From Enhygromyxa salina (GTDB taxonomy: Bacteria; Myxococcota_A; Polyangia; Nannocystales; Nannocystaceae): a stretch of 54,364 nt of DNA. The stretch spans positions 146,055 to 200,418 of the forward strand of contig NZ_PVNL01000139.1 in the NCBI RefSeq assembly GCF_002994635.1, in the 5' to 3' direction. Under the pieces are notes generated by a model. The model made no database searches, had not been told where the DNA came from, and worked only from the letters and a program-made list of their open reading frames with translations. This document shows, in pieces, positions 17,845-38,889 of this stretch; positions within the stretch are counted from its first letter, which is position 1; each line of letters opens with the position of its first letter. A program made the position numbers and the translations under genes.

Positions 17845-19944
17845 ATGACCAAATCCAAGTGGTTCCCTCGTAGTTTGTTGTGCGCCTCGCTGATCCTCGC
17901 TGCTGGCTCAGCACAGGCCGGCGGCACCAAGACCCACAAGCTCGACGAGTTCGACGAGTTCGACGACGGTGAGGTCGTCGGCGCCGCGATCGAGACCAGC
18001 GGCCGGGTCACCCGGGGCTACGCCAGCGAGCGCGCCGATCTCGAGCTCAGCTCCGCGTTCACCTGCGTGACCGACGGCAAGCAAGCCTGGGTCGGGACCG
18101 CAGACAACGCCACGATCCAGCAGGTTGACCTGCGCGGCGGGACCCCGGCCGTCAAGCAGCTCGTCGAGCTCGAGGGCGTGGTCGTCAGCGCGATCGCCCG
18201 GCTGCCCAGCCAGGATCTCGTCGTCGCCGTGCTCCCTGGTTCCAAGCTGCTGCGGGTCGACAAGAACGGCGAGGTCAGCGACTTCGCCGAGCTCAAGGAC
18301 GTCGAGCAGATCTGGGCGATCGTCCCCCACAAGGGCAAGCTGCTGGTTGCGACCGGTCCCAAGGGCGAGCTGTGGTCGGTCGGCACCGACGGCAAGGACC
18401 CGAAGGTCGTGCTCGACGTGCCCGAGAAAGACATCTTGTCGGTGCTCGCCGTCGGCGACGAGATCCTAGTTGGGACCTCGCCCAAGTCGCGGCTGTACAA
18501 GCTGGACGCCGCGCTCGAGGGCGTGCTGCTCCACGAGTTCAAGGGCGATGAGATCCGCGCGCTCGCGCTGTCCGGCTCCACGGTGATCGCCGCCGTCAAC
18601 AAGTTCGAGGATCGCAGCGTGTCGAGCCGCGTGGCCCTGACCAAGCAGCTCAACCGCTCGAGCCTGACCGGCGAGAAGCCCGAGGACAACAACACCGCCC
18701 GGTCCCGCGCCGACGCCGACGCCGAGCTGTGGGCCGTGGACCTGGGCAGCAAGCGCGACGTGCTGCGTGCCCAGGACGCGGCGTGGGACAAGTGGTTCGC
18801 CAAGGGCTCGCAGTACTTCATTGATCTGATCGCGCTCGACGACAGCGGCACCGTGCTCGCGGCCAGCTCCGAGGGCGGCAGGATCTATCGGGCCCGCGGG
18901 CGCCGAGACGTCTCGATCGTCGCGGATCTCGAGGAGCGCCAGGCGACCAGCATGTGCCGGACCGACAGCGGCGACATCCTCGCAACCGCCAGCGACGGCG
19001 CGGCCGTGTACCTGCTCTCGCCCAAGGCCGCCAACGCCAAGACCAAGCCGCGCTGGGTGTCCGAGGTGCTCGACGCCGATCACCCCGCCCGCTACGGCAG
19101 CTTCGCGCTCGAGGGCAAGGGCAAGCTCGAGCTGCGCGTGCGCTCGGGGCCGACCGAGGAGGTCGATGATCGCTGGAGCGCCTGGAAGCCCGTCAAGCTG
19201 GCCAGCGAGAACGGTGAGCTGCGTGGGTCCACGGATCTGCCGCAGCGTCGCTACCTGCAGGTCGAGGTCGCGCTTGGGGACGACAGCGCCGAGCTCAGCT
19301 CGATCACTGCCTTTTACGCGCCCGAGAACCTCGCGCCGCTGGTGGAGGAGATCGACGTCAAGATGCCGAGCGTGAGCAGCAGCAGCGACGAAGAGCCCGA
19401 TCCCACGATCACGATCGAGTGGGACGCCGAGGCCCGCGATGATGACGACCTGCTGTACGAGGTTGCGATCCGGCGCACCGGGACCGGGGATGACGCCTGG
19501 GTCAGGCTCAACAAGGACGGGCCGCTCACCAAGAAGGAGATCAAGCTCGACCTCGATACCCTGGCTGACGGGATCTATGAGGTCCAGGTGATCGCCAGCG
19601 ACGAGCCCAGCAACGGCGCTGGCGCGGCGGCGCGGGACTCGTTGATCTCCGAGCCGTTCGTGATCGACCGACGTCGGCCGACGCTGGAGAACGTGCGCGC
19701 CAACGCGGGGCGGATCACCGGGGTCGCCAAGGACCAGGGGAGCTACGTGCGCGACGTGGCGTTCTCGATCGACGGTGGGGCGTTTCGGTCGGCCTCGGCG
19801 AGCGATGGGCTGTATGACTCGAGCACTGAGCAGTTCGAGCTGGTCCTGCCGAGCGAGCTTGGGCCCGGGCTGCACCGCGTGGTCGTGCGCGCGCGAGACG
19901 TGCGGGGCAACCTCACGACCGTGGCGCTCGAAGTCGGCGGCTGA
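17845..19944 (+). CDS. secreted hypothetical protein (signal peptide, repetitive beta-rich body); its 3' end is the duplicated integration site of the downstream island
   Basis: Signal MTKSKWFPRSLLCASLILAAGSAQA; no catalytic motifs recognised; last about 40 codons are duplicated at 30310-30428. Confidence 0.6.
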   Translation: MTKSKWFPRSLLCASLILAAGSAQAGGTKTHKLDEFDEFDDGEVVGAAIETSGRVTRGYASERADLELSSAFTCVTDGKQAWVGTADNATIQQVDLRGGTPAVKQLVELEGVVVSAIARLPSQDLVVAVLPGSKLLRVDKNGEVSDFAELKDVEQIWAIVPHKGKLLVATGPKGELWSVGTDGKDPKVVLDVPEKDILSVLAVGDEILVGTSPKSRLYKLDAALEGVLLHEFKGDEIRALALSGSTVIAAVNKFEDRSVSSRVALTKQLNRSSLTGEKPEDNNTARSRADADAELWAVDLGSKRDVLRAQDAAWDKWFAKGSQYFIDLIALDDSGTVLAASSEGGRIYRARGRRDVSIVADLEERQATSMCRTDSGDILATASDGAAVYLLSPKAANAKTKPRWVSEVLDADHPARYGSFALEGKGKLELRVRSGPTEEVDDRWSAWKPVKLASENGELRGSTDLPQRRYLQVEVALGDDSAELSSITAFYAPENLAPLVEEIDVKMPSVSSSSDEEPDPTITIEWDAEARDDDDLLYEVAIRRTGTGDDAWVRLNKDGPLTKKEIKLDLDTLADGIYEVQVIASDEPSNGAGAAARDSLISEPFVIDRRRPTLENVRANAGRITGVAKDQGSYVRDVAFSIDGGAFRSASASDGLYDSSTEQFELVLPSELGPGLHRVVVRARDVRGNLTTVALEVGG

Positions 19945-19946
19945 GC
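19828..19946 (+). repeat. left copy of 119-bp direct repeat (about 96% identical to 30310-30428); attL-like island boundary formed by the 3' end of gene 17845..19944
   Basis: Direct alignment of both copies: 5 mismatches in 119 bp; both end in ...GAAGTCGGCGGCTGAGC. Confidence 0.85.
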
Positions 19947-20059
19947 GCTCGAACCTGGCCGCGCCCTCGCTGACGCCGCTGGGGTTCGTGCCGCCTGCGG
20001 AGTACGACACTAGCTTGGCCTCGTGACGTCCGCCCGTGGTGTTCACCACGGCCATGAGA

Positions 20060-21244
20060 TCATCGTTCGGTGGTCGCCTGTACACGTGCCACCAGTCGCT
20101 CGCCCGCCTCCTCCCAGCCCTGAAGGGTGTCCGAATCGGTCGCTAGCTCGACCAAGTGGACCGTGATCCGCGAGCCGTCGACGTTGCGGTATCGGAACGG
20201 CCGGAGGTCGCTCAGCATCCCCTTGGGGAACACCAGCACGGCCTGTCGCGCGCCGGTCATCCAGCAGTAGGTCAGCGTCTGTTGGAGGTTCGCCGACGCG
20301 GGGGTGGTCTTGTACTTGGCGTCGACGATCACGGGGCGGTCACCGTCGCAGCGCTCGAGCAATACGTCGATCTCCATGCTGCCCCCGTGGACCGAGGCGT
20401 CCACCGGGCCGCGTCGGTACGGGAGCTGAACCTTCGCGCGCGCGCCGGGCAATGACCGGGTGAGCGCGCGGGCGACCGAGCGCTCGAACAAGTTGGCGAG
20501 GTTGATCAGAAACGAGAGCCCGCGGACGCCCGTGCCCTCTGTCAGGCCGTGGGCGTGAGCCAGCAACAGGGCCAGGGCGACGCTCGGCTCGAACGGACGC
20601 TCGAGTCGGGTCAAGGGCAGCTTGCCGCTGACCAGCGCAGGTTCGACGCGGGGCTGGACCTCGGCGAACAGCGCGGTCAGGGGACCGAGGGCCGGCCCTG
20701 CGGCGGCGCGCATGACGGACACTCGTTGGATCGACGCCAGCGCGGCCGCGAGCAGCCCGTTCAAAGGCGTGTTCGGGAGCCTCGAGAACACGATGCAGGG
20801 GACTTGGGCCAGGTTCGCGCCCATCCGAGACATCCGGGCGAAGTCGATACGACCGCGTACGACCGACGAGACCTGCTCTTGCCGGCGATAGTGGCGGAGC
20901 AGCCCCGTCGCCTGGATCGCGCGACTCAGCTCGTCGCAGAACACCCGCGCGAGCGCGGCCGCGACGTCGCCCTGTTCACCGCCGTGGTCGCTGCGACTCA
21001 CGTGCCGCAGAGCCGACAGCTCCGGGTAGGCATAGGCGGCCCAAGTTAGCAGACACGCGAGCGGAGCCTTGCGCGAGCGTATGCACAGGGTCGATCCATC
21101 CGGCATGCGCAGCGAGCCTGCGACCCGCACGATTCGCATGCCATCGGCGCTGACCCCAAAGTTCCCACCCAGCAGTCGCCCGAGGTGACTGGCATGCTCT
21201 GGCGACGCAGCGAAGGGCTCGTTCTCGTAGACGACCCGAACCAT
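20060..21244 (-). CDS. mcrC: McrC-like endonuclease subunit (PD-(D/E)xK) of an McrBC-type modification-dependent restriction module
   Basis: C-terminal nuclease motif PVIVDAKYK (PD...D-A-K) typical of McrC; ATG at 21244 overlaps the McrB stop (TGATG); in-frame TTG at 21247 is an alternative start. Confidence 0.75.
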   Translation of the reverse strand: MVRVVYENEPFAASPEHASHLGRLLGGNFGVSADGMRIVRVAGSLRMPDGSTLCIRSRKAPLACLLTWAAYAYPELSALRHVSRSDHGGEQGDVAAALARVFCDELSRAIQATGLLRHYRRQEQVSSVVRGRIDFARMSRMGANLAQVPCIVFSRLPNTPLNGLLAAALASIQRVSVMRAAAGPALGPLTALFAEVQPRVEPALVSGKLPLTRLERPFEPSVALALLLAHAHGLTEGTGVRGLSFLINLANLFERSVARALTRSLPGARAKVQLPYRRGPVDASVHGGSMEIDVLLERCDGDRPVIVDAKYKTTPASANLQQTLTYCWMTGARQAVLVFPKGMLSDLRPFRYRNVDGSRITVHLVELATDSDTLQGWEEAGERLVARVQATTER

Positions 21245-22965
21245 CAAGGCTCCGCCACCTGGCCCTCCTCGAGCTCGTCATCCTCGTCTTGGAGGGTCTG
21301 GCGGTCGGAGAGCTCGCGCGAGACGATCGCCCGCCAGATTCCGTCGGCCTCGGCCAAGGCCTGCTCGTCACCGAAGAAGTACTCCTCGAGCAGCGGCCGG
21401 ATGTCCATCGCCCATAGCTGCCCGAACGGGTCGCCGTCCTCGACCAGCGCTGGGGACAGGAAGTAGCTGTGGCCGATCTGATGGTCCCGGTCGAGACGCT
21501 TGGCGATCCACTGGTTGAACGCATCGAGGATGCCCGGACCCACTTCGGCGATCAGCCCGGGCACACGGGCCGCCCCAACGACCTCTGGGTTGGGGTCGAC
21601 GCGGACGAACCCGAACCGACGACGCAGTGCGTAGTCGACCAACGCCACGCTGCGATCGACCGAGTTCATCGTGCCGATCACCACGAGGTTGGGCGGAACG
21701 ACCAGCTTGCCCCCGAGCGCGAGGGTCACGGACTCACCACGGTACTCGAGCGCGTAGAGCAGCTCGCCAAAGATCCGCGCTGGGTCACCACGGTTGATCT
21801 CGTCGATCACCAGCACGTAAAAATTGTCGGGGTCCTCGCCCGCCGCCTCGGCGATCTGCACGAACGGCCCCTTGGTCTGCTCGTAGCGCAGCGTGGTCTG
21901 CTTGATGTCTGGACGCAGGCCCTGGATGAAGTCCTCGTAGGCGTAGCTGGGGTGGAACTGGACCAGGCGAAACCGTCCGTCCTCGTCGGCCGCGTCCTCG
22001 CCTGTGAGCGCGCGAGCGACCTGCTTGGCGACGTGGGTCTTGCCGGTGCCGGGTGGGCCGTAGAAGATCAGGTTGCGGGGCGGGGCGAGGTCCGGGGACG
22101 CGCCGAGCTGAGGGGCGAGACGGAGGGTCAGGGCGTCGTGGATGGGCTTGCCGAGCTTGGGCCGGAGGCGTTGCCAGGTGTCGAGCACCCGATGGGCGGG
22201 GGCATTGGCGGTCGGTGGCGGCCACACGGGGGCGCCTCCACTCCCGTCGGCCCGCACCTTGGCGCTGGCGGGCGCAAACCCGTTGGGATCCCAGCCGTCG
22301 CGCTCTTGCTCGAGGTGCAGGCGCCCGGCAGGAGTGATCTTCCACTGGCCGGTCTGGGGGTTCTCGGCGAGCCCTCGCTTCCCGAGGTTCGAGAGCGCCC
22401 AGGCGGCTCGGAACTCGAACACCCGGACACCGCCAGGCATGAGACGAAGGTCGCCCGGTCGGAGTCGGTCGCCGAGGTGTCGCTCGACGCGCTCGAGGAT
22501 CTCCCCGCGATCGGTGAGGTTGAGGGCCAGCGCTTCGAGTATGGGGACCTCATAGGCTTTGAATGCCGTGACCTCGACGGTGTCGGTCTGGACCTTGCGC
22601 GCGATTGGCTCGGTGGCCTCGGGGATGGCGAGGTCGACGGAGAGTGGATCGCTCTCGTGAGCACGGGCGTGGGCACGGCCGAGCTCGGTGAGCTCCCACC
22701 AGCCGTACTCGCCGACGATGAGGCCTGCGTGCTTGAGGTCGTGTCGAGCCCAACCGAATCGGTTCTTTGACTCGAGGTAGTCGAGCTGCCCCTCGGTGAG
22801 CTCTCCCGCCAAGAGCTCTCGGATCCTGATCACGACCCTCTGCTTGCGAGCACGGCCGCCGAGCTGGCTCAGCGCACGTGTGACCGGGACGAAGAATGGG
22901 CGGTGGGAGCTCGAGGTCGCAGCCAAGCTCGCTTCGGCCGCTTCGAGGGTGGGGTCGTTGGTCAT
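21244..22965 (-). CDS. mcrB: McrB-like AAA+ GTPase subunit with N-terminal tandem Mrr_N-like winged-helix (DNA-reader) domains
   Basis: Walker A NLIFYGPPGTGKTH; Walker B/McrB box FYVLVIDEINRGDPARIFGELLYALEYR; McrB signature IGTMNSVDRSVALVDYALRRRF (the MNTADRS motif); N-terminal repeats resembling Mrr N-terminal wHTH (GWARHDLKHAGLI..., ...WALSNLGKRGLAE...WKITPAGR); ATG overlaps helicase stop (ATGA). Confidence 0.85.
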   Translation of the reverse strand: MTNDPTLEAAEASLAATSSSHRPFFVPVTRALSQLGGRARKQRVVIRIRELLAGELTEGQLDYLESKNRFGWARHDLKHAGLIVGEYGWWELTELGRAHARAHESDPLSVDLAIPEATEPIARKVQTDTVEVTAFKAYEVPILEALALNLTDRGEILERVERHLGDRLRPGDLRLMPGGVRVFEFRAAWALSNLGKRGLAENPQTGQWKITPAGRLHLEQERDGWDPNGFAPASAKVRADGSGGAPVWPPPTANAPAHRVLDTWQRLRPKLGKPIHDALTLRLAPQLGASPDLAPPRNLIFYGPPGTGKTHVAKQVARALTGEDAADEDGRFRLVQFHPSYAYEDFIQGLRPDIKQTTLRYEQTKGPFVQIAEAAGEDPDNFYVLVIDEINRGDPARIFGELLYALEYRGESVTLALGGKLVVPPNLVVIGTMNSVDRSVALVDYALRRRFGFVRVDPNPEVVGAARVPGLIAEVGPGILDAFNQWIAKRLDRDHQIGHSYFLSPALVEDGDPFGQLWAMDIRPLLEEYFFGDEQALAEADGIWRAIVSRELSDRQTLQDEDDELEEGQVAEP

Positions 22966-25910
22966 GATGCGGCCGTCAACGTACGAGGCCCGGGCCCGAG
23001 ATCAATCGCGAGCGACTCCGCCAACCGCGACGGCAGCTCCGGAGGCTCGACATCGTGAAGTTCGTACTCGTTGAACTGAGGTTGGGCGCCGAGCAAGAAC
23101 TCGAGCCACTTCTCGCGTAGCTTCACCGTGCGGAACATGCGTTCGTCGATGGTCCCCCTGATCACCGGGTAGAGTACATCGAGCTTCGCGTCCGGCGTCT
23201 CGCTACGGACGCGAACGAGCTTGGATCCGAGTCGGTCGATCCGGCCGATTCGTTGCTCAATCTGCGCCGGGTTCCAGACGAGGTCATGGTGGACCACGCG
23301 ACGACAATGTCGATGGAGGTCGAGGCCCTCTTGCATGACTTCGTTCGCGACCAGGACCATTGGAAACAGCGGGGTGTTGAAGGCCTCGCGCAGGCGATCG
23401 CGCCCCTCGGGGCTCTTGGTGTGTCGGACAAAGCTGCCCGACCGGATCGGTCCCTCGAGGATCATCGCCTGCTGCCGATCGTCCCGATCGATGAAGTACT
23501 CGAGGAAGCTCCGCACGAGCTCGAGCCAATGCCGGCCTTCGGGCAGCGTCCAATACTGATCGAGGAACGCCAAGCTCGGGGCGGAGTGGACAGGGTCGAC
23601 GGAGAGACCATGGTCAATGGCCGCGTGGAGGAACTCCGGCACGAACGGGACCTGTCGATAGGTGAGGTACCGGCTCAGCTGCTCGACGACGCGGACCCGC
23701 AGCTTCAGCGCCAGCCGATCCAAGAGCCCGGTCACCGACTCCCAGAGATTTCCGTGCTCTCCGATCACCAGGCGGGCAATCGATTCACTGACGGTCCAAG
23801 TGGGGCGCTGATCGCCTACCGAGTCATTCTCAAATTCGTCTTTCTCGAGATCGAGCCCGAGGGTCAGGAAGTCGGCGCGCAAGATGGCGTGGATCGCTTC
23901 CGGGTTTGCGGCCGCTGCGACCGGCCGACCGGCGTGTTCCCACAAGCGAACCGCAGCCTGCTCGACACATCGCTTGGCGACCTGGTAGCTGATGTCGCTC
24001 GCAGCGGAGCTTGCGACGGTCACCGACCGCAGGAGCCGATTCGCCTCCTCCGCGATCGGCCCAACGTTGACCAGGGCCCAGCCGGAGATCGGTACGACGG
24101 TGCGAAGGTATCGCTCGCGCAGCGCCAGGTATAGCGAATCCTGAGCTCGGTGAAACCGTTGCTGAAGTCGGGTGTGCTTGCCACGGACTCGGCTGGGGTC
24201 TTCGCCTTCACCCTTGCGGTCAAAGATCTCGTCGGCGGTCGCGCCGGGATAGACCCGCTGCCAGCGAGCGAGCATCCGCTGATCCCAAGCGGCTCGAATC
24301 TCGCGTCGCAGCTGCTCGAGGGTGGCGACACGCGAGCAGAAGATGAGGGTCTTCTCTCCGCCTTCGGCAGCCGTCAACGCGTCAGCGATCCCGAATTCGA
24401 GCTTGGGGTGGCTCTCTGCGCTGGCGTCGATGTGACCAAGCACGCTTTTGAGCAGCTCGCGGTAGACCTCGGCCTGCGGCGGCAGGGGGGTGCCTTCAGT
24501 CGTCATGATCGCGCCACCCGACGCGGCCGCATAGGAGGACACCATGTTGATCTCGACGGCGGCCTTGTGCGTGGGGCGGTGACGTCGAAACATCTCGGCG
24601 GTCAGGCGCTCGTAGATCAGGAAGGGCAAGACCGAGTCACCCTTGGCGTCGAGGGTCTTGGGCTGGTGGTCCCGGTACTGGCGCTTGTCCTCGCGCAGAC
24701 TGCGGATCATCCACTTGCGAAACCCGGGTTCGATGACGTCGTTCTTCAGTCGTCGGAGGTTCTTCACCTGCGCCAGCACGATCTGAAGGCTCTCATCCTC
24801 GGGTGCGTAGCGCTCCGGGTCAGCGTCGTAGTCGCGCGAGAACTCGGCCGCGACGAATGGTTCGAGGTTGGTCCAGGTGGTTTGAAACGCGTCGTAGGCG
24901 TGTTGGTACTCGCGGACTTTGGACAACAGGGCGTCGATCTCGTCGAGCAGGCCCCTCGGTGCTGACTTGGCCAAGCTAAACAGGCCGAAGACCTCGCGGA
25001 GCTCGCCGATGTCGAGCTGGAAGGGCGTCGCGGTCAGGAACACGGCCTTGTGAAAGCCGTTGTGGAAGATGGTTCTCATGCCCTGAGAGCGCAAAGAGCC
25101 CGAGTTCTTTAGCTTGTGGGCCTCGTCGACGATCAGCAGGTCGATGGCGGGGAGTAGGCGGCCGGCGAGGATGAAGCGCGCTCGATACAGGGCGTTGCGG
25201 ACGGCGTAGGGTCGTTCGAAGCCAGCCAGACCTTCGGCTTCATAGATGTCATCGAGTCCAGCCCAGCCTTTGCTGCCTTCACCCTCACCCTTCTTCCCTC
25301 GATGGAATGCCGACCGCAAGTGTCGCTCGAGATCTCCGAGACCGAAATGTCCGAGGAAGCGCTCGTGCGTGACGTCGACGCGCTCGTGCTTCCCCTCCCT
25401 GAACCTGGCCATGATCGCGTTCGCGGTCCTGCCGTGGAGACCCTTCCAGTGAAAGAACAAAGACAGCAGGTAGGTCTGTGCGCCTCCGCCCTTGCCCCCC
25501 TGGAACATGGTCACCGGAGAGACGACGATCGGGTGTTCACGAACCAGACGGATGAACCCCGAGAGGCTGGTCGCCGACTGCACCTCCCCCCCGAAGTCGT
25601 ACATCTGCTTGAAGCGCGCAAATTCTTCGACCCACTTCGTGTTGAGGTCGGGCCCGGGCGTGACGACGACGATCCGCGCCTTGGGCTTGCGATGTCGGAC
25701 GGCCGCGGCGAGGCCGAGCGCCTCGAAGGTCTTCCCCATCCCGACCTCGTCAGCCAAGATGACGCCCGGGCGATCTTCGAGCGTATGCAGGGCGCGAAGG
25801 ACAGTGTCCTCCTGCCGACGCACATCCCGAGACGGGATCCCGTCCTGCGCTCGCCGAGCGCCCAGCTGCAAGAAACACCGAAGCCAATCTAGGGTCGCCG
25901 TGTCAGTCAT
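22962..25910 (-). CDS. SNF2-family (SF2, DEAH-box) helicase/ATPase
   Basis: Motif I ILADEVGMGKTFEA, motif II LLIVDEAHKLKN, motif III FLTATPFQ, helicase-C motifs LVANEVMQEGLDLHRHCRRVVHHDLVWNPAQIEQRIGRIDRLG; ATG at 25910 overlaps the stop of the upstream PLD gene (ATGA); the 5' extension of the raw ORF (to 26627) is out-of-frame read-through. Confidence 0.85.
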   Translation of the reverse strand: MTDTATLDWLRCFLQLGARRAQDGIPSRDVRRQEDTVLRALHTLEDRPGVILADEVGMGKTFEALGLAAAVRHRKPKARIVVVTPGPDLNTKWVEEFARFKQMYDFGGEVQSATSLSGFIRLVREHPIVVSPVTMFQGGKGGGAQTYLLSLFFHWKGLHGRTANAIMARFREGKHERVDVTHERFLGHFGLGDLERHLRSAFHRGKKGEGEGSKGWAGLDDIYEAEGLAGFERPYAVRNALYRARFILAGRLLPAIDLLIVDEAHKLKNSGSLRSQGMRTIFHNGFHKAVFLTATPFQLDIGELREVFGLFSLAKSAPRGLLDEIDALLSKVREYQHAYDAFQTTWTNLEPFVAAEFSRDYDADPERYAPEDESLQIVLAQVKNLRRLKNDVIEPGFRKWMIRSLREDKRQYRDHQPKTLDAKGDSVLPFLIYERLTAEMFRRHRPTHKAAVEINMVSSYAAASGGAIMTTEGTPLPPQAEVYRELLKSVLGHIDASAESHPKLEFGIADALTAAEGGEKTLIFCSRVATLEQLRREIRAAWDQRMLARWQRVYPGATADEIFDRKGEGEDPSRVRGKHTRLQQRFHRAQDSLYLALRERYLRTVVPISGWALVNVGPIAEEANRLLRSVTVASSAASDISYQVAKRCVEQAAVRLWEHAGRPVAAAANPEAIHAILRADFLTLGLDLEKDEFENDSVGDQRPTWTVSESIARLVIGEHGNLWESVTGLLDRLALKLRVRVVEQLSRYLTYRQVPFVPEFLHAAIDHGLSVDPVHSAPSLAFLDQYWTLPEGRHWLELVRSFLEYFIDRDDRQQAMILEGPIRSGSFVRHTKSPEGRDRLREAFNTPLFPMVLVANEVMQEGLDLHRHCRRVVHHDLVWNPAQIEQRIGRIDRLGSKLVRVRSETPDAKLDVLYPVIRGTIDERMFRTVKLREKWLEFLLGAQPQFNEYELHDVEPPELPSRLAESLAIDLGPGPRTLTAAS

Positions 25911-28063
25911 GATTGCACTCCGTAGAACGAGCGAACCTGCGCGAGCCAGGCCCGAGGCGGCGAGTCCGATACCAGCGTGTCGAGGTCGGACTGAAGCTGC
26001 TCGACAAAGCCGTCGAGGTAGCCCCTCTTCTTGTCGCTGGCGTCGTCGTCGGGCAAGTGAACGGTCGAGAGCTCCCGCAGCAGCTCGGCCCCGTAGAACC
26101 AGATCGTGTCGCGCGAGAACGCCTCCGTGGCGGCCGCCTCGAGCATGCGCTTCCAGACCGCGCGCAGCCCCAACGAGCCGTCGATACCGAGCCGAAAGGC
26201 GGCAACCGAGGTCTCGGGATGAGCGAGTTCGGCCGCCACGCTCCACCACGCCTTGAACACGTCGGTGGGACCGAAGCCGAGCCCAAACAACTCGTCGAGC
26301 GGGGCGTCGGAGTCCGAGCCAGCCACGAGACGCTGTTGCGTCAGATGCTCGAGGCGTTCGCGTCCCAAGCGTCGGCCCAACAGCAGCAAGAGCTCGTAGA
26401 GGCCCAACAATCCTTCGCCGGGACCAACCGGGAGCGCGACGAGGTCGCTGACCAAGATCGGGATCGCGCATGCGAAGTCGCCGACGATCAGCGTGAGCTC
26501 GGCGCTGGATCGGTGGAGGTCGAACTCGTTGATGACCGTGGCCTGCGTGGGGGCCCCGACCCCGCTGGCGACGATGGCGTCGCGGTAGGTGAGTGACCAC
26601 GCAGGCAGCACGACCGCTTGGGTCCACTCGACGACCAGCGTTCGAGCGGCGGCGTCATACACCGCGTCGAGCACCGCCAGCGCGTAGTTGGGGCCCAGGT
26701 CGGGGAACTCGCGCTCGTGCACCGACACCGCGAGGTGTGGGCACGCGACGAGATCAGGGGCGATGTCGTCGAGCGCGAGCGACCCCTCGACCTTTTGCGC
26801 GAAGCACAGCTCGACGTTGCCAGTCTGCGCCGTGGTCAGCAACAACGCCTTGCGCGATGCGTTGGCCGAGCCCACGACGACCAGGGTCTCGCTGCGGCCC
26901 GCGGTCTCGTACGCGAGCACGAGCAGCTTGGCGTGGAGCGGGCGATAGACCAGCCGCCCATCGACCAACTGGGTCGTGGGGTGCAGCCACACCTGCATGG
27001 ACTCGAAGGCGGCGCGGGCGGATTCGAGGGCCGCGGGCGGTGCGTAGGCGCGGGGCTGCTCCAACGGCCAGAGGGTCTGTTTGGCGAGCGCGGCCTCGAT
27101 ACCCTTCAATGGCCACGACTGACGTTCGGCGTGCGCATCGAGGCCGTGGAGTCGGGTCCGCGCGACCTTGGTCGGGACCAGGTAGGTCACGGCCTCGTTC
27201 CCAGCCTCGTCTTTGCCGAGCCACCCCCACAAGCGGCCGAGACCGTCGGCGATGCGTGTGGTGTGTGACTGGGGCCGGACCGCCGGGTTCTCCCAGAGCA
27301 CGCCGACATCGAGGTGCGCGCTCGGACCGGCGAGCTGGTACAGACGGCCAAACACGGAGTCGAGCGACTCGGCGGCGGCTCGATCATCACGCTCGAAGAA
27401 CGGCGCCATGATCCCGACTCGCTCGATGACGGCGTCTGCAGGCAACAGCGCGAGCGCCTGGTCGAGGATGCAGCTATCCAGGGTCGAGTCGAGGCACGCG
27501 ACCGAGCTGTCCACGTCTCCCGTCCGCCCTGGCAGGCGGCGCTCGAACTCCTCCATGAACAAGTGAAGTTGCGTGCCTCGTCGCCGCGCAAACGCTGAAG
27601 CCCGCTCGATGCACCCGACCAGCTCGTGCAGCGTCTGCGCCTCCGACTGGATGTCGTAGCGAAGGTCGAGGGTGAGGAACAGCTCCGCGTTGCTCCCATA
27701 GCCAGCCGAGGTCAGGTTGCCCGATCCGACATGGACCCGAGCGAAGCCCTCGTAGAGCAAGATCGCCAGCTTCGAGTGAAAGACTCGGGCCGACACGTCG
27801 AGGAGGTCGTAGGCCAGGCGGCGTCCACCCTGGCGCACGCCGGCGTCCGCGATCACGGCGATCGGCGTGACTTGCAAGCTGGCGAGCGCCTCGTCGTGGT
27901 AGCGCGTCGGCTGCTCGACGGGGTCTGAGCTGAGCCGGAGGACCGCGCGCAGGACGTGGTTTTCGAAGAACGACGGGTCGAACGCGTAGGTGAGAAACAG
28001 GGCCCCGAAGCACATCTCCTCGGCAGCGAGACGGTCGAGCACCTTGCCGACGGCGACCTTCAC
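25907..28063 (-). CDS. phospholipase D-family (two HKD motifs) nuclease, 718 aa
   Basis: HKD motif 1 HSKLAILLYEGFARVHVGSGNLTSAG and HKD motif 2 HAKLLVLAYETAGRSETLVVVGSANAS; GTG start at 28063 preceded by GGGAGG (5 nt spacing), overlapping the upstream stop (GTGA). Confidence 0.8.
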   Translation of the reverse strand: MKVAVGKVLDRLAAEEMCFGALFLTYAFDPSFFENHVLRAVLRLSSDPVEQPTRYHDEALASLQVTPIAVIADAGVRQGGRRLAYDLLDVSARVFHSKLAILLYEGFARVHVGSGNLTSAGYGSNAELFLTLDLRYDIQSEAQTLHELVGCIERASAFARRRGTQLHLFMEEFERRLPGRTGDVDSSVACLDSTLDSCILDQALALLPADAVIERVGIMAPFFERDDRAAAESLDSVFGRLYQLAGPSAHLDVGVLWENPAVRPQSHTTRIADGLGRLWGWLGKDEAGNEAVTYLVPTKVARTRLHGLDAHAERQSWPLKGIEAALAKQTLWPLEQPRAYAPPAALESARAAFESMQVWLHPTTQLVDGRLVYRPLHAKLLVLAYETAGRSETLVVVGSANASRKALLLTTAQTGNVELCFAQKVEGSLALDDIAPDLVACPHLAVSVHEREFPDLGPNYALAVLDAVYDAAARTLVVEWTQAVVLPAWSLTYRDAIVASGVGAPTQATVINEFDLHRSSAELTLIVGDFACAIPILVSDLVALPVGPGEGLLGLYELLLLLGRRLGRERLEHLTQQRLVAGSDSDAPLDELFGLGFGPTDVFKAWWSVAAELAHPETSVAAFRLGIDGSLGLRAVWKRMLEAAATEAFSRDTIWFYGAELLRELSTVHLPDDDASDKKRGYLDGFVEQLQSDLDTLVSDSPPRAWLAQVRSFYGVQS

Positions 28064-29442
28064 GAGAGCCTCCCGAGATCGTGGAGCAGCCGCTGGACGA
28101 CACCAAGCTTGAACTCCGGAAACTGGGCCCTCGTGCGATAGCCCGTGTAGTTGGTGGCCTGCAAGATGAGCTTGTCGTCCTGCCGACGGATCCACGACCC
28201 TCCACCGCGCCGAGACTGCTGCACGGCCCGGTGAAACGCGAGCAGTCGATCGAGGGCCGTCGAGCTATCGGCAACCGAGAGCTCCACGACGAGCTGCATC
28301 ATGGGAGGCCCGTGGAACACGAGTCGGCGAAAGCGGGCCGAAGCCGGGGCATCGAGGACCTCGCGACACGCAGCACGCAGCTCGTCCATTTGTGCGGCTG
28401 GAAACGCGGCGCTGGCCGTGGCCGCGAAGTCGGCGACCCAGTTGTGGTCGTTGATGAACGCATAGGCGCTGGCGAAGCGATCGAGCACGAGCTGAGCGAA
28501 GCGGCCAAACGCGATCGCGGTCTGGACCAAGTCTCGCAACGGGGGATCGAGCGGGCCCCAACGGCCCTCCAACATCCCTTCGAGCAGCTCGGCGGACGCG
28601 TCCACGCCGTCCCGTCGAGCGGCGATCAGCTGGTGGGCGAGCGACAAGGTCGTGCCGTCGCGGGCGTTGAGGAACAAGGCTTGCCATAGCCGATCCTGCT
28701 GAGCCTTTCGGCCGCGCTCGGTCAGCGACGACAAGCGCGACATCTTCCCGACCTTGGCGAGCGAGATTCTTCCGTGCTTGCGCTCGATCGTGAGCCGCTT
28801 GGGGTCGAGGGCTCGGAGCGCGTACTCCTGGTACTGGCCCACGGCCTGATTTTGGTCGGGTTCGTCCCAGAACGCGTCGATGATCGTCCTGGCTGCCAGC
28901 GATGGTCGCAGCGTGCCAGGGACCACGAGCTTGTATGTCCGCAGCGACGACAGGTAGGCACCAAGGCTCCCCAGCTCGCTCTGACGAGAGATCAGGCTAT
29001 AGTCGAGCCGCAACGGCCTGGCTCCGTCGAACCACGCTCGCGTGGCCCCACGTATGCCTCGCATCCCGTCCGCGTGACCTCGCCCCAGCGACCGACCATG
29101 AGACTCGAGCGTGGCCAGTGCCCAGAACCGTTCCCAGCGCTCGAACAGCTTGGTGCGCGAGACGTCGTCGCTCGGGATGTCATACCGCTGACAAGCGAGC
29201 TCGGCGAGATGCAGCCCGTAAATGACGACGGCGTAGTTCTGTGCCCGGCTCGTACGGGTCGTGAACCCTTCGAACAGCCACAGGCCGACCTGTTGTCCGA
29301 GGTAGTCGAACGCCAGCGGGTCCTCGGGCGTGAAGTCGGAGTCGAGGTCGAGGGGCGCCGACCAGTATAGCGTCTTGGGCAGAGTTTTTTGTGTCAGCAA
29401 CATGAGATCACGACGACGGGTCGGCACGATATCCAAACGCAC
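28060..29442 (-). CDS. hypothetical protein (460 aa), first gene of the five-gene PLD/SNF2/McrBC operon
   Basis: GTG at 29442 with GGGAGA 8 nt upstream; high GC3 throughout; no recognisable motifs; stop overlaps the PLD start. Confidence 0.6.
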   Translation of the reverse strand: MRLDIVPTRRRDLMLLTQKTLPKTLYWSAPLDLDSDFTPEDPLAFDYLGQQVGLWLFEGFTTRTSRAQNYAVVIYGLHLAELACQRYDIPSDDVSRTKLFERWERFWALATLESHGRSLGRGHADGMRGIRGATRAWFDGARPLRLDYSLISRQSELGSLGAYLSSLRTYKLVVPGTLRPSLAARTIIDAFWDEPDQNQAVGQYQEYALRALDPKRLTIERKHGRISLAKVGKMSRLSSLTERGRKAQQDRLWQALFLNARDGTTLSLAHQLIAARRDGVDASAELLEGMLEGRWGPLDPPLRDLVQTAIAFGRFAQLVLDRFASAYAFINDHNWVADFAATASAAFPAAQMDELRAACREVLDAPASARFRRLVFHGPPMMQLVVELSVADSSTALDRLLAFHRAVQQSRRGGGSWIRRQDDKLILQATNYTGYRTRAQFPEFKLGVVQRLLHDLGRLS

Positions 29443-29500
29443 CCGTTTTGTCTCCCATGGGTCTCGCTCCGCGCGGTAGGAAGACTGCTAGATTTCAGCC

Positions 29501-29848
29501 GTGGGAATTCGAACCAAGGGCCGAAGGCGGATCGAGGTCGAGGGTCAGGCCTACCATTGGGACTACCGCGCGAGCGGGCGCGGGCCGGGGCAGATCACGG
29601 CCGACGACATGTACTTCGCGCCGCGGCCAGCGGTGGTTCGCATCATCGCCGAAGACAAGAGCCTCCTCGCGACCTGGGACGGCGTCCACCTCCACGTCGG
29701 CGAGCTGCGCCGGGAGCTGCGGCCCCACCACATCGCCCCGGTCACGCCCAAGCTCGTGCGCCAGCTGATCCAAGAGGCCCTGCGCCTACGCGGCTCGGAC
29801 CGAGATCCACGGATCACCCCAGCGCGGTGGTGGCTGGACTTCGAGTAG
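29501..29848 (+). CDS. hypothetical small protein (115 aa) at the right end of the island
   Basis: GTG start, high GC3, no homology recognised; may be non-coding. Confidence 0.3.
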   Translation: MGIRTKGRRRIEVEGQAYHWDYRASGRGPGQITADDMYFAPRPAVVRIIAEDKSLLATWDGVHLHVGELRRELRPHHIAPVTPKLVRQLIQEALRLRGSDRDPRITPARWWLDFE

Positions 29849-30309
29849 CACCCATACGATTGCAATCAAATCTGCGCGAGCACGTGGACGTCGCGGCCGA
29901 CCTGGCGCACGCAATCCACCAAATCCTCGAGCTCTTTGAGCTGCGCGCGGGTCATGGTGAAGGCGCCGATCGGATCGACAGAAACGAAGATCGTCAGCCA
30001 GCTCCCGGTCCAGCGAAACGTCGCGTTCGCGCGCTCGACCCGGGCGTCGGCGGCGTTGGAGTCGAGCAGGGTCCGGCGCCAGAGCCAGAGCTGGCGGCGT
30101 CGTAGGTGTCTGGATCCCCCTGCCCCGAGCGTCGTCGCGTCGATGAAGCGATCCTCGGAGCACCGGCACGCGGTCGAAGCATTTTTCACGGGGTCGGGCA
30201 CCGCGGGGGATGGTTCGGCTCCACCAGCGTCGAAGATCGGCACGGTGCTGGCAATGCCGCCCCACCAGCATGGCCAACATCAACGATCTCTTCCACGGCC
30301 TCGAGCGCC

Positions 30310-30428
30310 GAGCAGTTCGAGCTGGTGCTGCCGAGCGCGCTCGGGCCCGGGCTGCACCGCGTGGTCGCGCGCGCGCGGGACGTGCGGGGCAACCTCACGA
30401 CCGTGGCGCTCGAAGTCGGCGGCTGAGC
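30310..30428 (+). repeat. right copy of 119-bp direct repeat (attR-like); displaced pseudo-3'-end of gene 17845..19944
   Basis: Encodes ...FELVLPSALGPGLHRVVARARDVRGNLTTVALEVGG*, identical in 37 of 40 residues (5 nt mismatches) to the C-terminus of the 17845..19944 protein; the upstream part of ORF 30106..30426 is unrelated. Confidence 0.85.
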
Positions 30429-30573
30429 CCACGCCGCCCTCACGCCACGGGGCGTGAGTGTCAGCGCCGCTCAGAAGTTCGGCCGGCGGGCCGGCTGACA
30501 ACCCACGCATCCAACACATGCACGCGCCCAAACATCGTGGCACTCTGGGGGCCACACCCCGGGGCGCGGTTTC

Positions 30574-30876
30574 ATGACGGCACAAGCAGAGATCGAAGGC
30601 ATCCTCAGCACACTCGACGAGGCATACGATGAGCTGCGTGCGGCGAGGACACGGCTCGCCGAGCTGCTGCCGATGTCTGCGACCAAGCCGGGCGACAGCG
30701 GCCAAGCGCGAGTCGAATTCGTGGCCGGGCTTCAGCCCGACACCGAGGAAGTGAGCGGCGAAGAGCTGATCCGCAAGATCAACGCGGAGGCGTGGGAGCG
30801 GGCCCAACGGGCGCTCGTCAACGCAGCCGAGAAGGTCGAGCTCGCCCACAAGCACCTGCGCCGCGAGCTGGCGTGA
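30574..30876 (+). CDS. hypothetical small protein (100 aa, predicted helical)
   Basis: ATG start, high GC3; no family recognised. Confidence 0.4.
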   Translation: MTAQAEIEGILSTLDEAYDELRAARTRLAELLPMSATKPGDSGQARVEFVAGLQPDTEEVSGEELIRKINAEAWERAQRALVNAAEKVELAHKHLRRELA

Positions 30877-31540
30877 CAGGCTCGCGTCGAGCTGAACGAC
30901 TCGGCCCCTGGTTCTGCGGTTGTTCGGCTCATCCGTGAGCCAGACCCATGCTCGCTCGGCTGGTCAGGCCAAGAAGCTCAGCGCCTCGGCCCGAAGCCGG
31001 GCGCGCGGTGACTTGCCGCGAACGCGGGCCTTGGGTGGCTCGGCAAATCCGATGAGGTCGAGGCGGCGAACAATCTTAGTGATAAAGCGCATGGTCTTGC
31101 CTTTCTTGGCGGTTTAGCGGCTGGCGCCTCCCTCACGGCTTGTGGGTGGAGGTGATGCCTGACGTGCTTCTGTTTTACAGATACTGAATCTGGAGGTCAA
31201 CCTATTTGATGGAAAATTTTCATGTCACTGGATTTTTGAGGTTAGGCGCTCGGCCCCCTCAGATCGAGCTCCATTGGACCATTAGCTGGTTGAAATCGGC
31301 GTTCAACGTGATTCCAAGGCCGTACTATACGCATTATTTAGTAGTTTTACATACGAAATATGCTGATAATGAGGGCAGAATCGAGCGGCCCGACCAACAG
31401 CCAACCTGGAATTTCTAGCTGGGATTTCCAGCCCCACTGGAATTCTGGATTTTTGGTAGGCCCGCTCTCACCTACGGCAAAGGCCGGCCCCTCGACCGCC
31501 GAACGATCGAAGCACCGGCCTTTGGGGTGGCGAGGAGTTG

Positions 31541-31903
31541 CTAAGCGGACTTCGCGGCCTTGGCGGCCTTGCGAGCGCGTCGCTCTTGCGACTCCACGCG
31601 GTCGAGCAGCCACCCAAGCGTGCGCTTGCTGGTCAGCGCCTGCACGTAGTCCTTGTCGGCGGTCTTGTTCTCGGCCGCGGCGACCTTCTGGACCAGGCCC
31701 TCGCGCCCACCGTGGGCGGCGACCTTGTCGGACAGCGCCTTGAGGTGCAGCAACTTGGCGTTGGAGACCAGCGTCAGGCGCTCGGCCAGCTCGTCCTTGG
31801 ACTCGTCCTCGAGCGGCTCGAGCACGTCGGACAGCTGCTTGGCGAGCTCCTTCTTGGAGCCGTACTTCTCGTTGAGGATCTGGAGGGGTGTTTGCTTGGC
31901 CAT
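31541..31903 (-). CDS. hypothetical protein with Lys/Ala-rich C-terminal tail (possible nucleic-acid-binding)
   Basis: Internal ATG (MAKQTPLQILNEKYG...) with GGGAAGAG SD-like sequence upstream; C-terminus ...RRARKAAKAAKSA; followed on the plus strand by the hairpin AAAGGCCGG-N29-CCGGCCTTT (about 31468-31515). Confidence 0.5.
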   Translation of the reverse strand: MAKQTPLQILNEKYGSKKELAKQLSDVLEPLEDESKDELAERLTLVSNAKLLHLKALSDKVAAHGGREGLVQKVAAAENKTADKDYVQALTSKRTLGWLLDRVESQERRARKAAKAAKSA

Positions 31904-32017
31904 GGTTCTCTTCCCGTTGGGCACCGCCAACAGCAGCTGGCGGGAGGAGGGGGCCGGCATTGAAACTCAGGAACCGGGGCGCGTCCAGGCGCTGGGCGTG
32001 ACTTTTGGGGCGGGCGC

Positions 32018-33001
32018 TCAGGGTGCTGGCGTCGCGTGGGCCGCGGCCGCGAGCGCGGCGAAGTCACCAGCCTGAAGCTCGAGGCCGACCCGCACGCGGT
32101 CGCCGACGTTGCCCACGTTCACGCGCCCGAGCACGCCCGCGAGCGCGGCGGGGAGCTCCGCGGCGGCGTCCTTGCTCAGCAGGCCGTGAAGCCCCGCCGC
32201 GGCGGTCTGAGCTGCGGCGTCGGTCTCGAAGCCAGCCGTGAGCTCGACCCGCGCGCGCTCGCCGAGCTCGACGGCGCCGGTCAAGTTGATGGCCGCGGCG
32301 GCCTCGGGCACGCCCACGAAATTGAAGAGCATCGCAACTTGCGGCGGGAGATCGGCGGCGAGCCACGCAGCGGCGTGGGTGTCGACGGTGGTCAGCAGCT
32401 CGCGCTTGGCGTGCTTGGCCGCCGGCTTGGCTTCGCCCTCTCCGTCGATAAGCTCGCCGACCTGCCCCTGCCACCCGGCCGTGGCGAGCACGAGCAGGTT
32501 CGCGTTGACCAAGAACACCCGACCGTCGGGGAAGTCGATGATCTTCTTGCTGTCGTCGACGCTGATCTCCGCGCTGGGTGCAGCCCCGACCAGCCGCTGC
32601 GCCGCCTCGATCATGCAGAGCGCCCGCGCGTCCTCGCCGAACCCCGAGCCGGTCAGCGCGACCACGAATTCGTCGGCGTGCGTGCCGATCACCACGCTCT
32701 CGAAGCTGCGTAGCTCGAGGCCGCAGCCGTCGAGCGCCTGCTTGGCCTGCTGAAACTGGGGCTCGGCGGCCAGCTCGGCGGCGAACTGGCTGGCGAGCTG
32801 CGAGCTTGCGAACACGGTGGGGGTGAGCCCCGCGATGACGCTGGCCTCGTTGGGGATCAGCTCGATCGGCTGCGGGAAGGCCTCGCGTGCTGGCTGTGCC
32901 GGGGCGACCGCGACGGCGTCCGACTCGGCCTCGCGCCCGCAGCCCGAGCCAACAGCCACCGCCAGACCCAGCGCGAGCCTCACATACAGTCGCCTGGGCA
33001 T
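32018..33001 (-). CDS. hypothetical lipoprotein (tandem paralog 1)
   Basis: ATG at 33001 gives MPRRLYVRLALGLAVAVGSGC (lipobox); homologous to 33099..34007 (for example LIPNEASVIAGLTP vs LIPDEAEFIVGLNP). Confidence 0.6.
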   Translation of the reverse strand: MPRRLYVRLALGLAVAVGSGCGREAESDAVAVAPAQPAREAFPQPIELIPNEASVIAGLTPTVFASSQLASQFAAELAAEPQFQQAKQALDGCGLELRSFESVVIGTHADEFVVALTGSGFGEDARALCMIEAAQRLVGAAPSAEISVDDSKKIIDFPDGRVFLVNANLLVLATAGWQGQVGELIDGEGEAKPAAKHAKRELLTTVDTHAAAWLAADLPPQVAMLFNFVGVPEAAAAINLTGAVELGERARVELTAGFETDAAAQTAAAGLHGLLSKDAAAELPAALAGVLGRVNVGNVGDRVRVGLELQAGDFAALAAAAHATPAP

Positions 33002-34968: not shown

Positions 34969-36069
34969 ATGGCGCTCTCTGTAGGCATCGTCGGCCTCCC
35001 CAACGTCGGCAAGTCCACGCTGTTCAACGCGCTGTCCGACGCGGGCGCGGAGGCAGCCAACTATGCGTTCTGCACGATCGAGCCCAACCACGGGATCGTG
35101 CTGGTCCCCGATCCTCGCCTCGACGCGCTGATCCGGGTGATCACGCCGAAGAGCACCGTCCCGACCACTGTCGAGTTCGTCGACATCGCGGGTCTGGTCG
35201 CGGGCGCGAGCAAGGGTGAAGGGCTGGGCAACCAGTTCCTGGCCCACATCCGCAGCGTCGACGCGATCGCCCACGTGGTCCGCTGCTTCGAAGACGACAA
35301 CATTCAGCACGTCGCCAACAAGGTCAATCCGATCGACGACGTCGAGACGATCGACACCGAGCTGATCTTGCGGGATCTGCAGTCGCTCGAGCGCCGGCTC
35401 GAGCGGGCTCGCAAGCAGAGCAAGAGCGGCGACAAGCAAGAGAAGCTGGCGTTCGAGCTGTGCCCGCGGGTGATCGCCGAGCTCAACGAAGGCAAGGCCG
35501 CGCGCGAGCTCGAGCTCACCCCCGACGAGGCGGCCGTGCTCGCCGAGCTGGATCTACTCACCGCCAAGCCGGTCTTCTATGTGGCCAACGTCGGCGAGGA
35601 TCAGCTCGCGGCCGGGCTCGACGATCCGCTCGTGAAGCGTCTGGTCGATCACGTCACGCCGAGCGGCGCCGAGGTCGTGGTCATCTCGGCCAACAACGAG
35701 GCGGAGATCGCCGCGCTCGAGCCGGACGAGCGCAAGGAGTTCCTGGCCGAGATCGGGTTGGAGGAGCCGGGGCTCAACAAGCTGATCCGCACCGCCTACT
35801 CGCTGCTGGACCTGATCACCTACTTCACCGCCGGCGAGAAAGAGTGCCGCGCGTGGACGATCAAGCGCGGGACCAAGGCGCCCCAGGCCGCGGGGGTGAT
35901 TCACACCGACTTCGAGCGGGGGTTCATTCGCGCCGAGGTCGTGGACTGGGAGACGCTGGTCGAGCTCAAGTCCGACGCGGCGGTCAAGGCCGTTGGGAAG
36001 ATGCGGGTCGAGGGCAAAGAGTATGTGGTCCGCGACGGCGACGTGATGCACTTCCGCTTCAACGTGTAG
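34969..36069 (+). CDS. ychF: ribosome-binding ATPase YchF (Obg-family GTPase)
   Basis: G1 [18 protein letters not shown]3 DIAGLV, typical YchF C-terminal TGS domain ...DVMHFRFNV. Confidence 0.95.
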
Positions 36070-37752: not shown

Positions 37753-38889
37753 TCACTCACGCTCGTCGACGAAGCGATCCTTCAACCCAGCCGACACATA
37801 CAGCGCATCATCAGGCCCAATGATCACAGCCTCCAGCCCAGCGTGGGCCTCGACGAACGCGAGCCCCTGGGCCGGCTCCATCACGCTGACGGCCGTACAA
37901 TAGGCGTCTGCGTCGGTCGCGTTGCTGGCGACCAGGGTCACGCTCTTGGGGCTGCGATCCGTGGGGATCGGCCAGCCCGTGCGCGGGTCGAGGATGTGGG
38001 TGTAGTGCACGCCCTCCCACTCGAAGAAGCGGGCATAGTTGCCCGAGGTGACGACGGCCTCGTCTTTGGCGCTGATGTGGCCAATGCGACCCGCGACTTG
38101 CCTGGGATCCTGAACACCGACGCGCCAGGGCTTGTCACCCTTTTGGCCGCTGACCTGGGTGTCGCCGCCTGCCTCGACGATATGGTTGGCGAACCCACGC
38201 GCTAGCAACACGGCCGAGGCACGGTCGACCGCGTAGCCCTTGGCGATCGCTCCCAGCCCAACCTTCATGCCCGGCTTACCGAGCCGCACGGTGCCGGCGT
38301 TCGGGTCGAGCTCGATCGATCGCCAGTCGACGCTCGGGAGACGCTCGGCGATCCGATCCTTGCTGGGCGGCTCGGCCCCCGGCTCGAACCGCCACAGCTG
38401 GCCGACGCTGTAGAAGCTGACGTCGAACAGGCCCTCGGTCTGGGCCGAGACGGCGGCCGCCCGGGCGAGGATCTCGATCAACTCGGGGGCGACGGTGACC
38501 GGGGCGCCGCCGGCCTCGTTGACGCGGGTCAGATCGCTGGTCGCCCGCCACTCCGAGGCGATGTCCTCGATCCTGGCCATCTCGTGGATCGCGTCGGTCA
38601 TGGCCTCGCTGGCCGCGAGCGCGTCGCCGCCAGGGCCAACCCACAAGTTGATCGAGACCCGCGTGCCCATGAGCTCGGTCTCGGCGAAGATCGTGCCGTC
38701 TTCGCGGATCAAGGACGCGGCCTCGGCTGCGGTCTTGGCCGATTGTTGGGCCTGATCTTCGGCGGCGACTTCCCCAGCTACGGCGGGCTTGTCGGCGGCA
38801 TTGGTGCGAGCCGCCGGGTCGGCGTCGCGCGAGCACGCACCGACCACGACGAGCAGCGCGGCGCCGACCAAGCTCGCGGGCCGCATCAC
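37753..38889 (-). CDS. apbE: FAD:protein FMN transferase (ApbE family) lipoprotein
   Basis: Lipobox LLVVVGAC; ApbE signature AIAKGYAVD and ...SGNYARFFEWEGVHYTHILDPRTGWP. Confidence 0.8.
   Translation of the reverse strand: MMRPASLVGAALLVVVGACSRDADPAARTNAADKPAVAGEVAAEDQAQQSAKTAAEAASLIREDGTIFAETELMGTRVSINLWVGPGGDALAASEAMTDAIHEMARIEDIASEWRATSDLTRVNEAGGAPVTVAPELIEILARAAAVSAQTEGLFDVSFYSVGQLWRFEPGAEPPSKDRIAERLPSVDWRSIELDPNAGTVRLGKPGMKVGLGAIAKGYAVDRASAVLLARGFANHIVEAGGDTQVSGQKGDKPWRVGVQDPRQVAGRIGHISAKDEAVVTSGNYARFFEWEGVHYTHILDPRTGWPIPTDRSPKSVTLVASNATDADAYCTAVSVMEPAQGLAFVEAHAGLEAVIIGPDDALYVSAGLKDRFVDERE

Follow-up and report, generated by a model that had tools for sequence, protein, structure and literature searches.

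The stretch of DNA analysed here (hereafter, the window) comprises 54,364 nucleotides of an Enhygromyxa salina contig (NZ_PVNL01000139.1, positions 146,055 to 200,418 of the forward strand) and includes a co-directional block on its minus strand, in which four genes follow a lead gene and all four junctions are 4-nt overlaps. The lead gene, gene A, is the subject of this report: a ZacA/PDC-M27A-like gene whose conserved coding sequence (28060..29403; ENSA7_77210) specifies 447 aa. It is followed by gene B (25907..28063), encoding a 718-aa protein of the phospholipase D (PLD) superfamily that is a candidate ZacB-like nuclease, by gene C (22962..25910), encoding a 982-aa SNF2-family ATPase resembling ZacC and PDC-M27C, and by two genes of an McrBC-type restriction module described further below.

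The reading frame of gene A, which the initial annotation had placed at 28060..29442, is uninterrupted on the minus strand and gives 460 aa when counted from the GTG at 29442. Its strongly coding character was borne out by the G+C content at the three codon positions (0.67/0.48/0.80), a signature shared with the four genes that follow and not with antisense shadow open reading frames (ORFs) such as 18466..20085. With 296 homologues for its protein (E<=1e-3), gene A does not represent an ORF arising by chance in GC-rich DNA; an identical protein is present in NCBI as a 447-aa hypothetical protein of Enhygromyxa salina (ENSA7_77210). The GGGAGA sequence reported in front of the GTG does lie 8 nt upstream of it. 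The assignment of the start to this GTG, with a length of 460 aa, had to be revised, given that the conserved protein starts at M14 of the 460-aa ORF, corresponding to the ATG at 29403. The alignment of 120 homologues, which span 436-470 aa, begins at M14; in the closest relative (L004, 78% identity) an in-frame stop precedes the equivalent ATG by 8 codons and no start codon intervenes, and in a second relative (L008) the stop precedes it by 3 codons. These upstream stops indicate that the 13-residue GTG extension is not conserved, and the conserved protein probably begins at ATG 29403 rather than at GTG 29442, as judged from sequence comparison. The GTG with its GGGAGA, located 39 nt upstream of that ATG and opening the longer alternative (28060..29442, minus strand), may be used in the Enhygromyxa salina strain itself.

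At the other end of gene A, the described overlap between its stop codon and the start of the PLD gene was found as annotated: the TGA of gene A and the GTG of gene B share the sequence GTGA at 28060..28063, which points to translational coupling. A close junction or overlap is also seen in other loci, and one of them (L001) has the same tight junction, gene A ending at 11344 and gene B beginning at 11341. The gene A protein is basic (isoelectric point, pI, 9.55) and carries no catalytic or enzymatic motif, and the gene B protein is acidic (pI 5.1).

Gene B matches the PADLOC ZacB profile (6e-13) and, weakly, Pfam PLDc_2, and contains two HKD-like motifs of the form HxK...GSxN, H96-S-K98 ... 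G113-S-G-N116 (27716..27778, minus strand) and H377-A-K379 ... G398-S-A-N401 (26861..26935, minus strand), both of which are kept in 21 orthologues. Gene C matches Pfam SNF2-rel_dom and Helicase_C, and its Walker A motif GMGKT (residues 57-61; 25728-25742, minus strand) and DEAH motif (residues 262-265; 25116-25127, minus strand) are kept in 20 orthologues. Among PADLOC profiles, gene C matches PDC-M27C (3.2e-49) and ZacC (9.1e-30). Among solved structures, its nearest relatives are double-strand DNA translocases, namely RapA and the SNF2 remodelers.

A set of related loci, 27 obtained from genome searches and three from exact look-ups, was used to examine the co-occurrence of these genes. Orthologues of gene B and then of gene C directly follow gene A at all 24 of the loci with enough downstream DNA, and at loci on short contigs gene B is visible as far as the contig end. 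The partners are a double-HKD PLD protein of ~717 aa and a SNF2 ATPase of ~960 aa. Gene A was present in every homologous operon examined, distant relatives included, and its earlier designation as the lead cistron of a defence operon thus holds in the sense that it is the integral first gene of a defence-type cassette (24/24 loci and the distant triads described below). The A-B-C loci are distributed among the Myxococcota, Planctomycetota, Burkholderiales, Nevskiaceae and Pyrinomonadaceae (Acidobacteriota), with one locus in an Enterobacterales metagenome-assembled genome (MAG). No conserved fourth gene was detected: in the 5 kb to each side of the cassette, any given flanking family recurs in two of 22 loci at most, and no methyltransferase is conserved in these flanks. 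The constant gene order across hosts and the lack of shared flanks indicate that the three genes A-B-C form a cassette that is complete in itself and moves horizontally. Across 19 complete loci, the proteins share on average 50% (A), 42% (B) and 53% (C) identity with their window counterparts, indicating that constraint on gene A matches that on the motor and is stronger than that on the nuclease.

Several individual loci provide further context for the cassette. A distant A-PLD-SNF2 triad (L031, 1-13586), in which the A protein is P0224 (479 aa) and the SNF2 protein is shorter (733 aa), lies directly downstream of BREX type 1 genes encoding a PglX-like methylase, an SMC_N/AAA_21 ATPase at the BrxC position, PglZ and BrxL, neighbours that place this triad in a defence-island context. 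In another distant triad (L032, 8001-14825) the helicase is split in two genes (292 aa and 786 aa), and the triad is flanked by Tn7-like TniB/TniQ, SSB and ArdC genes and by a VirB-type conjugation cluster; the TniB/TniQ and VirB-type neighbours indicate that this cassette rides a mobile (conjugative) element. A Planctomycetaceae MAG contig (L030, 3954-4043) retains only a 30-residue piece of A (residues 8-37, 77% identity) with neither B nor C nearby, and this fragment is probably the remnant of a decayed cassette. Enhygromyxa salina SWB005, a sister strain, encodes a second A-B-C cassette (L015, 9698-16136) that is without McrBC and only 54-55% identical to that of the window, from which it follows that distinct cassette alleles circulate within one species.

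The gene A protein of the window has no match in Pfam, NCBIfam, PADLOC or the PDB sequences (phmmer). Searches for remote homology to a housekeeping enzyme family, which would have spoken against a defence role, returned none in Pfam, NCBIfam and PDB, nor did the comparison of family members with Pfam; scans of family members and relatives against Pfam gave only scattered noise (e.g. COQ9_N). A profile built from 57 family members retrieved 255 clusters (50% identity) at E<=1e-3, 64 of them at E<=1e-30. Distant full-length members carry the common signature DPL...LPGxTxRTxRxRY...FERxWALA...RGxR...Q...GxLGAY...H..V...W, and alignment of the window family with these relatives using hhalign yielded a probability of 100% (E 1e-44, 414 columns). 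Two distant relatives were looked up, and both lie within A-PLD-SNF2 triads. When the 57 close members were compared individually with PADLOC, 16 of them matched PDC-M27A weakly (best E 7.5e-4) and three matched ZacA; among 65 superfamily members, 23 matched ZacA (best 1.1e-8) and 12 matched PDC-M27A (best 5.2e-24), and no other family was hit. The relatives match positions ~27-114 of the ZacA profile via their N-terminal motif. Together with the ZacB, ZacC and PDC-M27C matches of the neighbouring genes, these hits place the cassette as a divergent clade of the Azaca/PDC-M27 superfamily, and gene A is likely to encode the ZacA-equivalent subunit of an Azaca-like cassette.

Additional searches for relatives of gene A were less productive. 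Further homologue searches for a relative annotated as DUF6361 returned only already-known relatives, none of them Pfam-labelled, and tblastn against plasmids yielded one Methylocystis "hypothetical protein". The Enterobacterales relative gave no blastn match in E. coli genomes, and no phage-carried relative was found among IMG/VR contigs. No informative domain fusion of A was found among the relatives; in one of them (P0111), Ig-like domains follow a truncated A, and this protein probably represents a chimera or an unrelated fusion.

Azaca (ZacABC) was reportedly described by Millman et al. in 2022. Protection against phages is known from Bacillus and Klebsiella systems, and the Bacillus system provides more than 10^6-fold protection against T4, the DNA of which is preferentially degraded in vitro (10.1101/2025.07.10.664194). 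ZacA, which has been assigned to DUF6361, forms a complex with ZacB and ZacC; cleavage of T4 DNA needs all three proteins and depends on the PLD active site and on the ZacC Walker A motif, and the cut sites are highly degenerate (10.1101/2025.07.10.664194). The window cassette shares with Azaca an operon of three co-directional genes in the order unknown protein, PLD nuclease, SF2/SNF2 ATPase, and no methyltransferase or other modification enzyme accompanies it. Gene B corresponds to ZacB in profile match and in its retained HKD motifs, gene C corresponds to ZacC in profile match and in its GMGKT and DEAH motifs, and the 23 superfamily relatives of A that hit the ZacA model do so by the same N-terminal motif. 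The differences lie in gene A itself, which reaches neither the ZacA model nor Pfam DUF6361, in protein length (447 aa for A against a ZacA profile of 396 positions, and 718 aa for B against 586), in the hosts (GC-rich Myxococcota, Planctomycetota and Proteobacteria here, Bacillus or Klebsiella for Azaca), and in the presence of McrBC in the same operon as the window cassette.

PDC-M27 is a PADLOC phage-defence candidate with genes A, B and C, and we know of no experimental validation of it. Its C component is the best PADLOC match of gene C, its profiles, with lengths of 460 (A), 635 (B) and 892-1217 (C), are similar in size to the window proteins, and its A component is matched by the close and superfamily members of A enumerated above (16/57 and 12/65). 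In contrast, gene A of the window has no direct match to it, and gene B matches PDC-M27B only at E 0.012, more weakly than ZacB. By these matches, the window clade falls between the Azaca and PDC-M27 models.

DISARM, which comprises the PLD protein DrmC and the SNF2 protein DrmD together with DrmA, DrmB (DUF1998) and a methyltransferase, likewise pairs a PLD protein with a SNF2 ATPase, and gene C shows partial DrmD and DpdE matches that fall far under the NCBIfam cut-offs. Membership in DISARM was rejected on the NCBIfam equivalog scores, which reach 111.8 against a cut-off of 610 for DrmD and 13.7 against 133 for DrmC, and on the lack of DrmA, DrmB (DUF1998) and a methyltransferase, none of which belongs to the operon or is conserved at the related loci; DISARM, for its part, has no ZacA-like gene. 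Single-chain HKD-SNF2 fusions (NCBIfam "phospholipD_antiphage" NF042964; PADLOC PLD_Helicase and C3a139) also combine a PLD nuclease with a SNF2 motor and are partially matched by gene C, but in these proteins nuclease and motor are fused and have no A-like partner, whereas the window cassette encodes them in separate genes and invariably includes A. The cassette is best classed as a divergent member of the known Azaca-like architecture and not as a new kind of system.

Within gene A, the most conserved segment comprises residues 25-125 (29029..29331, minus strand), with the signature EDPLAxDYLGQQVGxWLFxGFTTRTxRAQxY ... FERWERFWALA ... MRGxRGA and a mean column identity that reaches 0.84 among family members and 0.47 over the superfamily as a whole. 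In relatives, it is through this segment that the PADLOC ZacA profile is matched, in its N-terminal region. Variability is highest in the C-terminal half, where column identity is 0.63-0.64 compared with 0.84 for the N-terminal part. Residues D28, P29, L30, T48, E91, W94, G116, Q141, Y150, H391 and W404 are invariant in the superfamily. An AlphaFold2 model computed from a 57-sequence alignment (predicted local distance difference test, pLDDT, 89.2; predicted template modelling score, pTM, 0.86) is mainly helical with short hairpins. A Foldseek search of this model against the PDB returned nothing at E<0.001, and a PDB profile search with the superfamily alignment gave only noise, which indicates that no Azaca structure has been deposited.

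The N-terminal half of gene A is confidently predicted to fold as a winged helix. The predicted region covers approximately residues 80-180 (28864..29166, minus strand; boundaries approximate) and is made up of helices 80-102 and 115-123, a helix at 148-156 (GAYLSSLR), a beta hairpin or wing at 159-167 and a helix at 169-176; the sequence ...GAYLSSLRxYGLVxPGxLRxTPAAxxIxDAF fits a recognition helix, a wing and a following helix. In the model, these elements form a three-helix bundle with a beta-hairpin wing that is superposable on known winged-helix domains. The initial annotation had found no nucleotide-binding, nuclease or DNA-binding motif in this protein, a statement that stands at the level of sequence but not at that of the fold, where a winged helix is modelled. 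The C-terminal end (helices 365-399, hairpin 405-414 and the conserved HRxVQxxRRGGGxW) may, from its predicted secondary structure, contribute a second winged-helix element. Beyond the winged-helix module, comparison with the PDB revealed no solved counterpart for the fold of A.

These features suggest a model in which gene A would provide the third, obligatory and non-enzymatic adaptor of a translocase-nuclease complex with B, a double-HKD PLD protein, and C, a SNF2 double-strand DNA translocase. Its winged-helix module would engage DNA, dock nuclease B onto the ATP-driven translocase C, or do both, and the PLD protein would be permitted to cleave only once A, B and C have assembled into a complex on target DNA; in the window, the cassette would share its transcript with an unrelated McrBC-type module for modification-dependent restriction. 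We regard the combined reading, a ZacA-equivalent subunit that acts as an adaptor licensing cleavage, as somewhat probable, and put forward the specific role as a DNA-engaging or docking adaptor tentatively, as plausible though short of probable.

Several observations weigh against this reading. The gene A protein of the window itself reaches neither the ZacA nor the PDC-M27A model of PADLOC, even at E<=10 for ZacA, and DUF6361 was never matched by the 57 family members or by 20 distant relatives (Pfam, E<=10 or 0.01). The link between gene A and ZacA is consequently transitive, drawn through weak-to-moderate hidden Markov model matches. In the Bacillus system, mutation of conserved ZacA residues left complex formation and in vitro cleavage unchanged (10.1101/2025.07.10.664194). 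Finally, the anti-phage activity of the window clade is assumed from architecture and context.

The alternatives differ from the adaptor model in what they ask of the winged helix and of the variable C-terminal half. In ATP-dependent restriction the target range is set by HsdS or Mod subunits, and gene A might likewise be an infection sensor or specificity subunit that reads a variable phage protein, a DNA modification or a sequence and thereby sets the target range. The greater variability of its C-terminal half agrees with such a role, as does the lack of a methyltransferase in the cassette, by which discrimination must come from the complex; the Bacillus system moreover prefers the glucosyl-hydroxymethylcytosine DNA of T4, and ZacA is its sole subunit without assigned activity (10.1101/2025.07.10.664194). 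Subunits that track phages, however, usually diversify faster, whereas conservation of A across phyla equals that of the motor and exceeds that of the nuclease; nothing resembling the hypervariable blocks of target-recognition domains was observed in A, and the ZacA mutants in conserved residues cleave T4 DNA in vitro as before (10.1101/2025.07.10.664194). We therefore consider this reading unlikely. In its most far-reaching version, gene A would found a new class of multi-winged-helix target-recognition subunits for ATP-dependent nucleases, reading hypermodified or non-self DNA and gating the SNF2-PLD pair, so that the cassette would constitute a methyltransferase-free Type IV-like machine deliberately co-expressed with McrBC to cover different modifications, a scenario we hold to be equally doubtful.

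Gene A could also be a purely structural bridge, a kleisin-like scaffold without contact to nucleic acid, with its winged-helix elements docking on B and C. The complementary charges of A and B would suit such an interface, the whole A chain is highly and evenly conserved, as large interfaces would be, and the Bacillus proteins form a complex in which all three are required for activity (10.1101/2025.07.10.664194). This reading is nevertheless quite improbable, because DNA-binding winged helices predominate among the structural matches and the basic pI of A is compatible with DNA binding as well. The top structural matches are transcription repressors, among them MntR, MarR, ArsR and PadR, and A is the first gene of its operon, features that would be expected of a winged-helix transcription regulator repressing the operon or of an antitoxin-like inhibitor silencing the PLD nuclease. 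Such repressors are 100-200 aa long, however, whereas A comprises 447 aa, including a sizeable additional helical body. At every locus its translation is coupled to that of B, its conservation far exceeds that of the usual operon-specific regulators, and ZacA is needed for cleavage rather than inhibitory (10.1101/2025.07.10.664194), making a regulatory or inhibitory function highly unlikely.

ZacA-type proteins are the sole unexplained part of Azaca-like nuclease-translocase defence, although they are required for cleavage. The ZacA-like family appears much wider than current Pfam and PADLOC models, with at least 255 clusters at 50% identity in several phyla, and the widespread clade represented in the window is missed by these models, so that the sequences found here could improve detection models. 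The analysis also adds the invariable association of the family with a PLD-SNF2 pair and the prediction of a winged-helix module inside an otherwise unmatched fold. Its outcome, an incremental advance, is the testable hypothesis of a DNA-engaging adaptor that licenses the nuclease.

The last two genes of the co-directional block encode an McrB-like AAA+ GTPase whose N-terminus carries Mrr_N winged-helix domains (21244..22965, minus strand) and an McrC-like nuclease subunit (20060..21247, minus strand; Pfam McrBC 3.5e-21). The SNF2 stop and the McrB start share the sequence ATGA, and McrBC is therefore probably co-transcribed with the cassette. In the McrB-like protein of this module (20060-22965), two N-terminal Mrr_N winged-helix stretches replace the classical McrB DNA-binding domain. 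Neither McrB nor McrC occurs at any of the 30 related loci, which identifies McrBC as a strain-specific local add-on and a separate module. The treatment of all five genes as one defence system could accordingly not be upheld, since McrBC lies outside the conserved cassette and is missing at every other locus.

The SNF2/PLD part of the block (23000-26000) has a G+C content of 0.63-0.64, compared with largely 0.66-0.71 in its surroundings, and the block is flanked by housekeeping-type genes encoding a SpoIVB-like peptidase (15852-17837), a YchF GTPase (34969-36069) and ApbE (37753-38889). The lower G+C of the SNF2/PLD part between such flanks is in keeping with acquisition of the block by horizontal transfer. 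Neither an integrase nor a tRNA or repeat boundary of the block was identified in the window, and a promoter and terminator scan of the operon was uninformative. The ~2 kb upstream of gene A (29443-31540) contain no Pfam-matching ORF and show ambiguous coding signatures with several overlapping frames. A candidate tRNA or integration site in this region, based on the T-arm-like sequence GGTTCGAATTCC (minus strand, ~29497-29515), was rejected, as ARAGORN detected no tRNA in the window; an Rfam scan of 29300-32200 also returned nothing, leaving GGTTCGAATTCC unsupported as part of a tRNA. The region 17845-20085 contains two ORFs overlapping in antisense, 17845..19944 on the plus strand (699 aa; no Pfam match) and 18466..20085 on the minus strand (539 aa). 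Their G+C contents by codon position, 0.68/0.46/0.91 and 0.89/0.48/0.69, respectively, indicate that only the plus-strand ORF is coding.

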